Position numbers and translations under genes: made by a program. A DNA stretch of 32,000 nt from Candidatus Babelota bacterium (GTDB lineage Bacteria; Babelota; Babeliae; Babelales; Vermiphilaceae), in assembly GCA_039809905.1 (NCBI GenBank), contig JBDHVY010000001.1, positions 630,001-662,000 of the forward strand, in the 5' to 3' direction. This document shows, piece by piece, positions 8,630 through 14,564 of this stretch. The notes below the pieces were generated by a model. That model had not been told where the DNA came from and ran no database searches. It saw only the letters and a program-made list of their open reading frames with translations. The first letter of the stretch is position 1; each line of letters starts with the position of its first letter.

Positions 8630-9214
8630 ATGAATAAGAAAATTATGATAGTATTCAGTTTAATGATTGTTTCACCAGCGCAGCTATTGTTCTCATATCA
8701 AAGTCGAGATATTCGCAGCGATTTAAAGTTTAAATATGAAAACAATCTACTGAATGAATGTCAGCTATCTGAAGAAGTTTTCGATTTTATTGACGTATTA
8801 GATCGTGATATCAATATTATGGAAGAGCATAAAGCGAATATAGAACGTTTAGTAGATAAGAATAAGGGCTATTTTAGACGAAGTGTTGTTCCTTTCTTAA
8901 AGACAGTGTGGACAACTAAGTTAGCTACTCTTTCAGTAGCAATGGCTTTTGTTGCTTCAATGCCTTCTGAAATGATTAATCAAATAGAAGTTGCATCAAC
9001 GAAAGCATTATTGACTGATCTGCAACCTATTGCGCCTTATTTATCAGGAGCTTTAGCTCTTTGGTTTCTTAAGAATTTTTGTTCCAGGTACGGATATTAT
9101 GGCAAGCTTGATGCAGATCTTATGAGGTTGAAAACAAAAATTAATCGCGACAAGCTGATTATTGCAAAACTTAAAGAGCTCAAATATAATTTTGTATCTC
9201 AAAATGGTATTTAA
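8630..9214 (+). CDS. Hypothetical exported protein: signal + helical region + bilobed hydrophobic domain + C-terminal coiled coil
   Basis: 194 aa. MNKKIMIVFSLMIVSPAQ signal-like N-terminus. Hydrophobic pair LATLSVAMAFVASM / IAPYLSGALALWFL. C-terminal KLDADLMRLKTKINRDKLIIAKLKELK. Confidence 0.55.
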   Translation: MNKKIMIVFSLMIVSPAQLLFSYQSRDIRSDLKFKYENNLLNECQLSEEVFDFIDVLDRDINIMEEHKANIERLVDKNKGYFRRSVVPFLKTVWTTKLATLSVAMAFVASMPSEMINQIEVASTKALLTDLQPIAPYLSGALALWFLKNFCSRYGYYGKLDADLMRLKTKINRDKLIIAKLKELKYNFVSQNGI

Positions 9215-9240: not shown

Positions 9241-9837
9241 ATGAACAAAAACATGATGATTTTGGCAAGTTTAGTTATCTGCAGCGTATATGGTACTGCA
9301 GTAAGTTTTAATCAAGAATACAAAGATATTCTCTATGCTCTTGATGAACTTGATCAAGATTTTGCCTCTGTTCCCATGATCACTGAAAACATTAATATGT
9401 TTATTGGTGTAGTTCACATGAATATGCAAATGACTGAAAAAAAGTTGCTTGCTGCTACAAAAGCGAGAAATAAAGCATTGCTTTACGCTGTTGCTGCTAC
9501 AGTGGGCAACGCTGGTGTTCTTGTGGTTGTAAATATGATTGGCAATAAGATTCGCTATTCAAATACAAGCTTAGTAAGCCATGCAATGCTCAGCAATATG
9601 GATGATTTATTTAGGAGCTTAGTGCGTAGTGCAGCTTCAGCGGTAACCAGCTTTTATGCGGTAGCTAGCATTTATGATGCTTTCAAAGCTTATAACACAT
9701 TGAAAGAATCATTAGAATTAGACGCCAAAATTATGGATAAATTACAAGATTTAAGAGAATCTTTGGCATATGCTGCAGCTGATGAAAATACAGGCTCAGT
9801 TGGCGACAATTTATTAAACAGCTCCGTGCAGGGCTAA
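9241..9837 (+). CDS. Hypothetical exported protein, architectural paralogue of 8630-9214
   Basis: 198 aa. MNKNMMILASLVICSVYG signal-like N-terminus. Hydrophobic pair ALLYAVAATVGNAGVLVVVNMIG / SAASAVTSFYAVASIY. C-terminal ELDAKIMDKLQDLRESL. Confidence 0.55.
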   Translation: MNKNMMILASLVICSVYGTAVSFNQEYKDILYALDELDQDFASVPMITENINMFIGVVHMNMQMTEKKLLAATKARNKALLYAVAATVGNAGVLVVVNMIGNKIRYSNTSLVSHAMLSNMDDLFRSLVRSAASAVTSFYAVASIYDAFKAYNTLKESLELDAKIMDKLQDLRESLAYAAADENTGSVGDNLLNSSVQG

Positions 9838-11677: not shown

Positions 11678-11712
11678 AAAAAAGAGACATGAATTTTTTC
11701 ATGTCTCTTTTT
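11678..11712. terminator. Bidirectional-looking intrinsic terminator after the helicase gene
   Basis: AAAAAAGAGACATGA (11678-11692), loop ATTTTT, TCATGTCTCTTTTT (11699-11712). Perfect stem flanked by an A-run and a T-run. Confidence 0.7.
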
Positions 11713-11821: not shown

Positions 11822-12679
11822 ATGAATATTAAAAAATTAGTTAGTATTACATTCTTGATTTCAGCAATACATATTCATGTTAATGCGATGACAGAACGTC
11901 AGGCTGATGCTCTTTCCATATTAACGTTAGTTGGGACGGGTTGTGTGTTCAAAGATACTGATCCATATATTCTGGGCTCGGCAGCAATGACTATGGCACT
12001 TATTAGCCATTGTTGTTTAGCGTCCTTTAGGCCTTCTGGTAAATTGTATGACGCAGCAAATTTATTGAATGGCGAAGGAAAAAGTGAATTAACGGAAACT
12101 TTTCTTGATACATATGAAAAATTTAGAGAAAGTGATACAACGAGCGAACAGCTTGAAAGATGGATTACTCGGCTTTACCCAAGTATTCCTGATAAAAACC
12201 CCTATCCTTTTGTAACGGCTATGCTTAGTCTTGATGCTTATAGTCCTAATGTGCTTAAGGCGCAAAAACTCATTCAATCGGTGCCAAATTTGATTAATAG
12301 TAAACAAGAACCTAATTTATGGAAAGAATATGATTATTTACAAAATAAAGCGGCAACAATTTGGAGTAATATTGGAGAAGCTCGTTCGATAATTTCTAAT
12401 ATGGAACAATACAAACAGCAGCTAGAGCTTTATCGACAATTTAAAGAAAAATCTGAAGAGCTTGCCTTACAGCGTAAGAATTTGGAGTTAGAAGAAAAAA
12501 GGGTATGTTTAGAAAAACAAGCTGCTGATATTAAAGCGCAAAAAGCAAAAGCTACATCTGCACAAGCGAGTGCTCTAAATAATATTTTCCGTTTAAAACT
12601 TGCTAAATGGTTGTTTACAAAATCAAATATTGCTTATTTTTCTATATTTTTGCTGTGTGGATATGTTTTAACGCAATAG
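11822..12679 (+). CDS. Hypothetical exported/membrane protein: signal + two TM + long coiled coil + C-terminal tail anchor
   Basis: 285 aa. Signal-like MNIKKLVSITFLISAIHIHVNA. Hydrophobic pair LSILTLVGTGCVF / ILGSAAMTMALISHCCLA. About 70 aa of heptad-like sequence (EQYKQQLELYRQFKEKSEELALQRKNLELEEKRVCLEKQAADIKAQKAKA). Terminal TM IAYFSIFLLCGYVL. Paralogue of 13531-14262. Confidence 0.6.
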   Translation: MNIKKLVSITFLISAIHIHVNAMTERQADALSILTLVGTGCVFKDTDPYILGSAAMTMALISHCCLASFRPSGKLYDAANLLNGEGKSELTETFLDTYEKFRESDTTSEQLERWITRLYPSIPDKNPYPFVTAMLSLDAYSPNVLKAQKLIQSVPNLINSKQEPNLWKEYDYLQNKAATIWSNIGEARSIISNMEQYKQQLELYRQFKEKSEELALQRKNLELEEKRVCLEKQAADIKAQKAKATSAQASALNNIFRLKLAKWLFTKSNIAYFSIFLLCGYVLTQ

Positions 12680-12809
12680 ATTCGCAACAAAATCAAGGAT
12701 AATCATCGATACTTTTAAAGAGTTTATTTGGAATTTTTATTATCAGCATAAAAGAGATTTTGCCTGGCGCAATATTGATAATCCTTATTACATTGTTGTT
12801 TCAGAAATT

Positions 12810-13502
12810 ATGTTGCAGCAAACGCAGACACATCGTGTTATTGCAAAATATGAAGAATTTATTGGAGCATTTTCCAATTTTGAGACTTTAGCCCATTCAT
12901 CATTGCAAGATGTGCTTTCTGTATGGCAAGGTCTAGGATATTATCGACGTGCACGATTTTTACATCAATTAGCGCAAAAAATAGTGAACGAATATAACGG
13001 CATTTTACCTTCAGATCCGAAAATATTACAAACATTGCCGGGTATTGGTCCAAATACTGCGGGATCAATTTGTGCATTTGCCTTCAATCAACCGGTGATA
13101 TTTATAGAAACAAATATTAGAGCCGTATTTATTGATAGCTTTTTTAAAAATAAAGATGTAGTCAGTGATAAGGAATTATTGCCATTGATTGCGGCAGCAT
13201 TGGATCAGAATAATCCTCGAGAATGGTATTATGCTCTGATGGATTATGGTGTATTTTTAAAATCTCATAAAAAAAATCCAAGCCGAAAAAGTGCTCATTA
13301 TACAAAACAATCAAAATTTGAGGGTTCTGATAGGCAAATACGGGCAAAGATTTTGAAATATATTGTGAAGAAAGGTTCTGTTTCTTATCAGGATATAACT
13401 TTGCATATTGCAAAAGATGTTGATAGAGTTCAAAAAATTATAGAGCAATTACTGAATGAAGGCTTCATTAAAATAGTTGATGATCTTTACGTGATTACAT
13501 AA
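12810..13502 (+). CDS. MutY-like HhH-GPD DNA glycosylase without Fe-S cluster Cys and without the MutT-like C-terminal domain; the conserved N-terminus extends upstream of the first ATG
   Basis: SEIMLQQTQT, GLGYYRRAR, HhH LPGIGPNTAGSI and ALMDYG (catalytic Asp context) align with the E. coli MutY core. The frame is open back to 12672 and encodes FKEFIWNFYYQHKRDFAWRNIDNPYYIVVSE, but that stretch contains no ATG, GTG, TTG or CTG. Confidence 0.8.
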   Translation: MLQQTQTHRVIAKYEEFIGAFSNFETLAHSSLQDVLSVWQGLGYYRRARFLHQLAQKIVNEYNGILPSDPKILQTLPGIGPNTAGSICAFAFNQPVIFIETNIRAVFIDSFFKNKDVVSDKELLPLIAAALDQNNPREWYYALMDYGVFLKSHKKNPSRKSAHYTKQSKFEGSDRQIRAKILKYIVKKGSVSYQDITLHIAKDVDRVQKIIEQLLNEGFIKIVDDLYVIT

Positions 13503-13530
13503 AAACTAAATTATCTAAAGAATTTTAAGG

Positions 13531-14262
13531 ATGATAAAAATGTTGAAAAATATAAAAACATTTTCTTTATTGATTGTTTTAGCCAATTGTTTTCCTATCC
13601 ATGCTATACAAAATTCAACGGCAAATATAGGTACAGCATTGGTCGCTTCCTTTTGTGTTGGAAGTAGTTATATGGTAACCAGAAAAGGATTTCCTTATAA
13701 AATGCCACCATTGTCCATGGTAGGAGCATCAATTATAACAACTGCAGCAGCATACCATCTTTTTCATCGATTAACGCCTTTAGGAAGAATTAAGCGAGCT
13801 AATATATTATTGGCAGAAGTTGCGCGCCATACATTAGCAAATACAATCTTTGAAGATGAGAACCTATTTTTTGATACGGTTCAAGATGTTTACTTAACTA
13901 ATGATTTACCGCTGATCAGTGCGTATAACCATCTTATTTCATTAGTACCTGTTGTTCATCATATACTAAGTCTTATTAATAAAGCCTCTGCTCAAATACA
14001 CCAAGATGCTTTATTACAGGAAGAATGTGATGCTTCATTATCGCGTGCAAATAAAATTTTTAAAAATATATCCGATGCAATTAAACGTATTCGTGAACAT
14101 AAAAATTATTTACCGCAATTGACACTTTATAAAGAAAGTTTAACCCAAGAAAAGCAGACAATTGCACAGGAACAAATGGCTCTTGCTCAGCTACAAATGG
14201 CCAATGCGCAACAAAGTAATACGTTGTTAAATTGGTTGAAAGCATTATTTGGAAGAAAATAA
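13531..14262 (+). CDS. Hypothetical exported/membrane protein, paralogue of 11822-12679
   Basis: 243 aa. Signal-like N-terminus, hydrophobic pair IGTALVASFCVGSSYMV / LSMVGASIITTAAAYHLF. Collinear similarity to 11822-12679: TPLGRIKRANILL vs RPSGKLYDAANLL, NISDAIKRIREHKNYLPQLTLYKE vs NIGEARSIISNMEQYKQQLELYRQ, and a Q/A-rich coiled coil. Confidence 0.6.
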   Translation: MIKMLKNIKTFSLLIVLANCFPIHAIQNSTANIGTALVASFCVGSSYMVTRKGFPYKMPPLSMVGASIITTAAAYHLFHRLTPLGRIKRANILLAEVARHTLANTIFEDENLFFDTVQDVYLTNDLPLISAYNHLISLVPVVHHILSLINKASAQIHQDALLQEECDASLSRANKIFKNISDAIKRIREHKNYLPQLTLYKESLTQEKQTIAQEQMALAQLQMANAQQSNTLLNWLKALFGRK

Positions 14263-14272
14263 TAACAATTTT

Positions 14273-14301
14273 GCAGAGAGGTTTTACCTCTCTGCTTTTT
14301 T
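14273..14301 (+). terminator. Intrinsic terminator
   Basis: GCAGAGAGG (14273-14281), loop TTTTA, CCTCTCTGC (14287-14295), then TTTTTT (14296-14301). It abuts the stop of the convergent ORF 14304-14564. Confidence 0.7.
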
Positions 14302-14303
14302 AT

Positions 14304-14564
14304 TTATAATCTTGCTCGAATGTCTGTCCGAGTTGATGACGTGTCTGTAACGAGAGTATTGCTGTTTTGATTTCCTTCTTCTTTTTTTTCATGTGAAGAA
14401 AGATGCTTTCCACCTAAAGCTCTTACCATTTGTTCATACTTTTTCGCATCATCTTCCCATTGCTTTTTTTGTTCTGGTGTAGGATTGCTTGGTTTTTGTG
14501 CTGTAGTTATATAATTGGTTGCTACAAATAAACTTAATATTGTTGCATAGGTAATATGTTTCAT
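14304..14564 (-). CDS. Small hypothetical exported protein
   Basis: 86-aa ORF. Signal-like MKHITYATILSLFVATNYITTA followed by a charged, low-complexity mature region. Lies 16 nt downstream of the photolyase gene. Confidence 0.4.
   Translation of the reverse strand: MKHITYATILSLFVATNYITTAQKPSNPTPEQKKQWEDDAKKYEQMVRALGGKHLSSHEKKEEGNQNSNTLVTDTSSTRTDIRARL

Follow-up and report, generated by a model that had tools for sequence, protein, structure and literature searches.

Two diverged members of a Babeliales hairpin-helix protein family flank a glycosylase gene in a Candidatus Babelota genome

The A–glycosylase–B locus and its protein family

In a 32,000-nucleotide stretch of the genome of a Candidatus Babelota bacterium (hereafter, the window), two related open reading frames (ORFs), A and B, lie on either side of a gene encoding an HhH-GPD glycosylase. 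The source genome (G000) is a single contig of 1.229 Mb with a G+C content of 34% and is rated 98.6% complete. The window covers its positions 630001–662000, and coordinates below are counted from the first nucleotide of the window unless a contig is named. ORF A (11822..12679), the glycosylase gene (12672..13502), and ORF B (13531..14262) are all on the + strand, and A and B encode proteins of 285 and 243 amino acid residues, respectively. The two proteins are very diverged copies of one family, defined here by two alignments (A1 and A3) and referred to as the Babeliales hairpin-helix family. Both follow the family plan, which consists of a signal, a hairpin of two small-residue-rich helices, a T-P motif, a helical body with PLxxA and YxxQxxxY blocks, and a long terminal helix.

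BLASTP aligned A and B with 25% identity over 213 residues (E = 3e-5), and A as a query recovered B orthologues from other genomes. When 2651 ORFs of G000 were searched with a hidden Markov model of the family (244 members), A and B were detected at E-values of 1.3e-32 (110.6 bits) and 3.7e-100, respectively; the corresponding values with a profile from a phylum-wide search were 5.7e-46 and 3.5e-81. In the multiple alignment, A-type and B-type proteins were collinear between the signal and the LKWL motif at the C-terminal end. The similarity is well beyond chance, and the collinear paralogy proposed in a preliminary description of these two ORFs, made from the sequence alone, was borne out, with the blocks quoted there aligning column for column.

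Among the 2651 ORFs, there are two true members of the family, A and B. A 175-residue ORF elsewhere in the genome (G000:C1:325123–325650) was rejected as a third paralogue, as it matched the signal and first-helix part alone (E = 0.002). It encodes a signal, a Gly-rich hydrophobic helix (TTIGAVLIVGAGYYLY), and a low-complexity P/S/K-rich tail, and the combination of a signal and a small-residue helix may be a more general anchor in G000. Two ORFs upstream of A (8630–9214 and 9241–9837) were also rejected, with hhalign probabilities of 2.4% and 0.1%, respectively, their plan being merely similar to that of A and B. They are a tandem signal-bearing pair with central hydrophobic helices, show 24% and 33–36% identity to their congeneric counterparts, and apparently constitute a separate fast-evolving exported family.

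For B, 118 homologues were found, with identities of 40–89%, lengths of about 240 residues, and hypothetical annotations throughout. A profile of 40 B homologues retrieved 240 proteins at E ≤ 1e-3 among 1.84 billion cluster representatives, and the source names of the homologues of A and B were exclusively "Candidatus Babeliales" or "Candidatus Dependentiae" bacteria. The phylum-wide search returned 261 Babeliales reference genomes, all belonging to the same order as G000, and the family was present in 147 of them (104 of the 189 high-quality genomes) with one to six matches per genome, many in tandem arrays. The family is small and restricted, and has so far been seen only in Babeliales/Dependentiae. 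In ORFs of 340–590 residues at the loci L026, L027, L029, L030, L034, L035, L037, and L038, the helical body (about positions 100–250 of the profile) is doubled behind one signal and hairpin.

Pfam gave no consistent family match for A, B, or 72 family members, and the family profile matched nothing below E = 0.4 among PDB sequences. Foldseek searches with the model of B (against PDB and BFVD) and the model of A (against PDB) returned generic helical matches alone (E > 0.04, TM-score < 0.35). The family is undescribed; no description of it was found in the genome papers on cultured Dependentiae (PMC4378268, PMC6561590) or in literature searches. Cultured Dependentiae (TM6) live as obligate intracellular parasites in amoebae and flagellates (PMC4378268, PMC6561590), and Babeliales are intracellular symbionts or parasites, as the preliminary description had supposed for the source organism.

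Predicted architecture of A and B

The AlphaFold2 models of A and B, generated with the family alignment, were both all-helical, with predicted local distance difference test (pLDDT) values of 93.3 and 88.3, respectively. B probably starts at its second ATG (13540), which would give a protein of 240 residues, because the sequence AAGGA lies 8 nt upstream of this codon. Numbered from 13531, residues 1–26 of B (13531..13608) form a Sec-type signal made up of MIKMLKNIK, a hydrophobic core, and IHA followed by IQ, where the IQxSTA motif conserved in the alignment begins. The hairpin (residues 28–80; 13612..13770) consists of two Gly/Ala/Ser/Thr-rich helices, recognized from the model and from hydropathy, with the basic loop RKGFPYK between them. 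It is followed by TPLGR (residues 82–86; 13774..13788), by the helical body (residues 83–189; 13777..14097) with the invariant blocks DLPLxxAY and KxxRxxKxYLxQLxxYK, and by a Q/A-rich terminal helix (residues 193–240; 14107..14250) ending in the amphipathic LLNWLKALF. The modelled helices of B span residues 2–23, 28–51, 60–80, 83–98, 110–120, 127–155, 160–189, and 193–240.

In A, residues 1–24 (11822..11893) read as a Sec-type signal composed of MNIKK, a hydrophobic core, and VNA followed by M; the corresponding pattern, x-[HQN]-A followed by [MI], is common to relatives. The hairpin (residues 25–67; 11894..12022) comprises two short, hydrophobic, small-residue-rich helices and is the most divergent part of A (pN 0.41). 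The helical body (residues 71–192; 12032..12397) opens with RPSGK, the counterpart of the family TPxGR. T-P directly after helix 2 is the sole nearly invariant motif of the family, and A has R-P at this site (residues 70–71). The body leads into a single 71-residue helix rich in K/E/Q/A (residues 195–265; 12404..12616) and then into a C-terminal hydrophobic helix (residues 267–284, KSNIAYFSIFLLCGYVLT; 12620..12673). The modelled helices of A span residues 3–16, 25–42, 48–67, 71–83, 89–102, 107–118, 129–152, 164–192, 195–265, and 267–284.

The N-termini of A and B have the form of classical Sec signals with a basic start and a hydrophobic core, and the conserved family motif after the signal is [AP]-[IV]-x-x-[ST]-[TA]-A. 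The post-signal hairpin, which had been described as bilobed and hydrophobic, is made of two helices of 18–24 residues joined by a loop of 5–9 residues. These helices contain long uncharged stretches of moderate hydrophobicity, and none in A or B reaches a Kyte-Doolittle value of 1.6 over 19 residues; 75–89% of the family members are likewise below this transmembrane threshold. Over 201 members, the median values were 1.23 and 1.39 for the two helices, respectively. The G/A/S/T content of the hairpin is 41%, compared with 24% genome-wide, and small-xxx-small-xxx-small motifs were found in the hairpins of 157 of the 201 members. In exported membrane-targeted effectors, low hydrophobicity is expected of segments that need to escape the bacterial inner membrane. 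A sum on the Hessa scale did not separate even the signal peptides from the other helices and was not used.

The terminal helices were assessed by a simple register count rather than with MARCOIL. The 71-residue helix of A shows strict seven-residue periodicity, with hydrophobic seams at i and i+2 (F L L V A A A F W and L L L I A A L F), and its d-equivalent positions are polar (Q L K Q E E K T L K in the region 193–265). Canonical a/d layers and a central Q/R zero layer were not found in A by this count. In residues 197–239 of B, the a positions read L L I L N L L, and hydrophobic residues occupy the d positions only in part, a weak coiled-coil signature. The overall order of signal, two hydrophobic helices, helical domain, and coiled coil given in the preliminary description thus survives as signal, hairpin, body, and long terminal helix, with a hairpin of moderate hydrophobicity and, in A, no canonical heptads.

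The tail of A (KSNIAYFSIFLLCGYVLT) is a 17-residue extension past the usual family ending LKWLxxLF and contains a hydrophobic run of about 14 residues (I270–L283). Apart from A, the extension occurs only in P0002, which is 76% identical to A and keeps it with hydrophobic substitutions. Neither the A-type proteins of G003 and G009 nor any B-type protein in the alignment has it, and a hydrophobic tail of any kind was found in 7 of the 263 family proteins collected. It is accordingly treated here as a lineage-specific add-on.

The preliminary description had likened A to tail-anchored SNAREs and both proteins to chlamydial Inc proteins. A resembles SNAREs and SNARE mimics in that its long helix runs directly into an 18-residue C-terminal hydrophobic helix. 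It differs from them in its N-terminal signal and hairpin, in the lack of a/d and zero layers, and in a tail that is not conserved in the family. An N-terminal Sec-type signal is incompatible with tail-anchored biogenesis, and the tail-anchored reading of A is not supported. Neither A nor B had a SNARE, Synaptobrevin, or IncA Pfam match at E ≤ 1, the sole match of A being PCRF (0.76). Structure comparison was no more favorable: Foldseek with both models against PDB gave nothing at E < 0.001, including any significant SNARE or IncA match, and the syntaxin-like Sso1/Sso2 chains appeared at E-values of 0.7–1.3 with TM-scores of at most 0.35.

The likeness to Inc proteins, such as IncA, is one of design. 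In both groups, two closely spaced hydrophobic helices near the N-terminus, below the transmembrane threshold in A, B, and most family members, are followed by a helical or coiled-coil body, and both are multi-copy, fast-diversifying, and restricted to an intracellular lineage. Membership in the Inc group is rejected: the A/B family has no detected sequence or fold similarity to Inc proteins, carries a Sec-type signal of the cleavable kind instead of a type III secretion system (T3SS) signal in a genome without a T3SS, and has shorter and much less hydrophobic hairpin helices.

Gene neighbourhood, evolutionary rates, and RING-finger relatives

The trio of A, the glycosylase gene, and B is flanked by terminator-like hairpins. 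One with a 15-pair stem lies 3′ of a DEAD-box helicase gene (11679..11712, + strand) and bounds the unit upstream; a strong one with a GC-rich 10-pair stem and T runs lies directly 3′ of B (14273..14295, + strand) and bounds it downstream. Because the flanking hairpins have no counterpart inside the trio, where no terminator-like sites were found, the three genes appear to form one transcription unit. The gap between the glycosylase gene and B is 28 nt. The downstream hairpin separates B from a convergent ORF for an 86-residue signal-bearing protein (14304–14564, − strand) and is probably a bidirectional terminator. The glycosylase, identified by Pfam and synteny, has a winged helix-turn-helix C-terminus. 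Its conserved N-terminus (…FAWRNIDNPYYIVVSEIMLQQT) starts at about 12672, upstream of the first ATG (12810), and overlaps the stop codon of A at 12679. The frame from 12672 to 12810 is open and contains no ATG, GTG, or TTG, and relatives of the glycosylase have 269–273 residues, compared with 230 residues from the ATG, which points to a non-canonical start or to translational coupling to A.

The order of glycosylase, B, and photolyase, with the photolyase gene on the opposite strand, recurs in the genus, in neighbouring genera, and in a contig whose B is 50% identical. B is nevertheless not a universal Babeliales core gene: its glycosylase-syntenic orthologues occur solely in the genus and in nearby genera, and more distant family members lie at other sites. 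The slot upstream of the glycosylase gene is variable. An A-type copy occupies it in G000, in G004 (directly upstream), and, by coordinates, in G003 and G009; it is empty in G008, and in relatives represented by L011 and L012 it holds a 441-residue ORF, which was considered as a relative of A and found to be unrelated.

In comparison with two congeners, the amino acid identity was 60–61% for B, 69–73% for the glycosylase, 70–82% for GatB, 66% for the photolyase, and 79% for the helicase. In comparison with environmental contigs of about 84% DNA identity, A, B, the glycosylase, and the helicase were 76%, 89%, 85–89%, and 94% identical, and their Nei-Gojobori ratios of nonsynonymous to synonymous substitution (dN/dS) were 0.47, 0.10, 0.14, and 0.04, respectively; these ratios are approximate, as the two contigs stem from different samples. 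B is under strong purifying selection, whereas A evolves fast. In the family tree, which is poorly resolved and gives no date for the A/B split, the B-type proteins of the genus formed a tight, fully supported clade, and A was placed on a very long unresolved branch. Recent or lineage-specific tandem duplicates were frequent in other lineages, as judged from the tree and the genome loci. The fast evolution of A and the frequent lineage-specific tandem duplicates are typical of interface genes.

Several relatives of A and B are fused to a RING finger. A C-terminal RING above the Pfam gathering score was found in at least seven members (P0153, P0155, P0170, P0184, and ORFs in L025, L028, and L033), with scores of up to 50.3 bits. 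The RING-H2 domain of the L028 protein matched human RNF24, RNF38, and RNF13 and plant RING proteins in PDB (E = 3e-13), and all the PDB matches listed are eukaryotic or from viruses of eukaryotes. The layout of the fused relatives is like that of the eukaryotic membrane-anchored RING-H2 proteins RNF13, RNF24, and plant ATL in general arrangement only.

One fusion occupies the exact slot of B. In G250, a genome of a different genus in the same taxonomic family, a glycosylase gene (63% identical) is followed by a 497-residue family module with a RING and then by a photolyase gene on the opposite strand. The C-terminal half of this protein, a helical domain with the RING (X-RING), also occurs elsewhere as a stand-alone protein of about 235–300 residues, and a signal-like N-terminus was seen in four of the five stand-alone proteins inspected. 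Since these proteins mostly carry plain signal peptides, the B-type module in G250 has replaced the plain export signal, standing in for a signal peptide on an exported E3 ubiquitin ligase. G250 has both the fusion (L060, C21:80365–84855) and a stand-alone X-RING copy (C21:37022–37771, 65% identical), and the former looks like a recent gene fusion. The X-RING proteins at L061, L064, L065, and L068 (in G236, G211, G247, and G017, respectively) are signal-bearing and have the conserved helical domain (…RISESMRNNALA…) with a C3HC4 RING (CGHDxC…CPxCR) behind it. Stand-alone X-RING proteins are widespread in the taxonomic family and absent from G000.

A RING finger requires ubiquitin-charged E2 enzymes, and, to our knowledge, only the host has such enzymes. 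The family module would thus have its C-terminal side within reach of host cytosolic proteins. A bacterial RING ligase has been proposed for Babela massiliensis (PMC4378268) and demonstrated for Simkania negevensis (SneRING; PMC12591485). The RING-bearing family members resemble these exported E3 ligases in presumably targeting the ubiquitin system of the host. They differ from them in that the RING sits on a hairpin and helical module rather than on a plain signal peptide, and A and B themselves carry no RING.

Possible export routes and candidate roles at the bacterium–host interface

G000 contains two secretin genes and two genes for GspE/PilB-type ATPases. Two large secretin-domain ORFs (821 and 864 residues) are located close together at G000:C1:612121–617271, about 13–18 kb upstream of the window, and are likely the outer-membrane gates of a type II secretion system (T2SS) or of type IV pilus-like machinery. 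In this 98.6% complete genome, neither FHIPEP (SctV/FlhA), the export gate of T3SSs and flagella, nor a VirB4-family ATPase, a marker of type IV secretion systems (T4SSs), was found. Inc-type and Dot/Icm-type delivery are therefore excluded, and with them goes the precedent of Legionella SNARE mimics invoked in the preliminary description. The routes that remain in G000 would be Sec together with a secretin pathway, or outer-membrane vesicles.

These routes agree with what is reported for cultured relatives. In Babela, the T2SS was the only secretion system detected, and 79 of 126 ankyrin proteins are signal-bearing, their secretion into the host being assumed (PMC4378268). In Chromulinavorax, Sec signals are present on 44% of the coding sequences and 78% of the ankyrin proteins (PMC6561590). 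The presumed effectors of Dependentiae carry Sec signals, and the access of these bacteria to the host has been inferred from genomes alone, which encode a type II-like secretion system along with numerous signal-bearing proteins (PMC4378268, PMC6561590).

On balance, we favor the explanation that A and B are Dependentiae-specific exported hairpin-helix proteins acting at the bacterium–host interface. The evidence for a host-facing position is remote homology, genomic position, and domain fusion. The Sec-type signal would export both proteins from the bacterial cytoplasm, and the hairpin of weakly hydrophobic, small-residue helices would most likely serve as a membrane-insertion or anchoring element. 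Judging from the fusions, the all-helical body, together with the long terminal helix, would be presented outside the bacterial cytoplasm at the bacterium–host interface. B, the conserved copy in a fixed chromosomal slot, is probably a scaffold. A would be a locally duplicated, fast-evolving copy that gained a longer charged helix, about 10 nm in length, and an extra hydrophobic C-terminal helix, and it could be held in membranes at both ends. The suggestion in the preliminary description that the two proteins are candidates for the host-membrane interface is plausible in view of the RING-bearing relatives, among them the protein that holds the position of B in G250; its fusion-modulating, SNARE-like part is not retained.

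Several observations weigh against this explanation. A and B have no eukaryote-like domain, and a Pfam RING search found no RING anywhere in G000. The RING-bearing positional counterpart in G250 is just 27% identical to B, so that any transfer of function rests on remote homology and position. B is nearly as conserved as the neighbouring enzymes (60–61% compared with 66–82% for the glycosylase, photolyase, and GatB), which is uncommon among effectors and would suit a housekeeping role in the envelope. The hairpin, below the classical transmembrane threshold in most members, might pack inside a soluble helical bundle. The explanation also requires that the C-terminus of a Sec/T2SS substrate reach the host cytosol.

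The main alternative, which we consider possible although clearly less probable, is that A and B are lineage-specific envelope proteins that have a structural or housekeeping function and do not touch the host directly. They would reside in the inner membrane or periplasm, or in the outer membrane by means of a glycine-zipper-like hairpin as in SlyB. The strong purifying selection on B, its near-housekeeping conservation in a fixed slot across the genus and neighbouring genera, the small-xxx-small motifs of the hairpin, and its weak hydrophobicity all fit such a role. A and B are similar to SlyB/PCP-type glycine-zipper outer-membrane lipoproteins in being predicted to be exported and in having a Gly/Ala-rich two-helix hairpin that might lie within a membrane leaflet. 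They differ in their C-terminal body, which is all-helical and not a beta domain, and in the lack of a lipobox: no lipobox or conserved cysteine was found at the signal end in the family alignment, and no Gly-zipper or other envelope Pfam match was obtained for A, B, or the 72 family members. A signal peptide by itself is little informative here, since at least about one third of the larger ORFs of G000 look signal-bearing (cf. PMC6561590). Against an envelope role, C-terminal RING fusions, including the one in the slot of B, would make no sense for a protein confined to the periplasm; the family was detected in only 104 of the 189 high-quality Babeliales genomes; and the genomes that have it carry one to six copies, with expansions in tandem.

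It is quite improbable that B is tied to DNA repair, for example, as a membrane tether for repair enzymes, as its apparent co-transcription with the glycosylase gene and its photolyase neighbour might imply. The conserved gene order, which extends to the contig with the 50%-identical B, and the short terminator-free gap between the glycosylase gene and B speak for such a link. However, conserved gene order in reduced genomes is often without functional meaning. Moreover, the body of B would lie outside the cytoplasm, away from DNA, in every simple topology, distant family members are not beside a glycosylase gene, and the slot also holds tandem copies and a RING fusion. Least probable of all is that A is a SNARE mimic modulating host membrane fusion through a coiled coil running into a C-terminal tail anchor, in the manner of IncA-type or Legionella effectors: the modelled junction of long helix and tail and the retained hydrophobicity of the tail in P0002 are outweighed by the N-terminal signal and hairpin, the seams at i and i+2, the poor Pfam and Foldseek results, the absence of the tail from the A-type orthologues in G003 and G009 and nearly the whole family, and the lack of a T3SS or T4SS for delivery.

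An extension of the favored host-interface explanation can be put forward tentatively, and we regard it as rather unlikely in its full form. The signal, hairpin, and helical module would constitute a device for export and anchoring that is compatible with Sec/T2SS and inserts helical scaffolds (RING ligases too, in some lineages) into a host-facing membrane, as a Dependentiae counterpart of the T3SS-delivered Inc proteins. A, with hydrophobic segments at each end of its helix of about 10 nm, would then be a tether bridging two membranes at a contact between the bacterium and the host or one of its organelles.

Compared with the known hairpin-anchored host-interface proteins of intracellular bacteria, the distinctive features of the family are its Sec-type export and its role as a carrier of RING ligases. 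Dependentiae are widespread parasites of protists, and the family, which repeatedly carries eukaryote-type RING ligases, offers a concrete and testable candidate for how bacteria that lack type III and type IV secretion could anchor proteins at the host interface. To this, the window adds a conserved and a rapidly evolving copy within an apparent single operon and a positional link to a RING fusion, and the contrast between the two copies could guide localization and interaction work.

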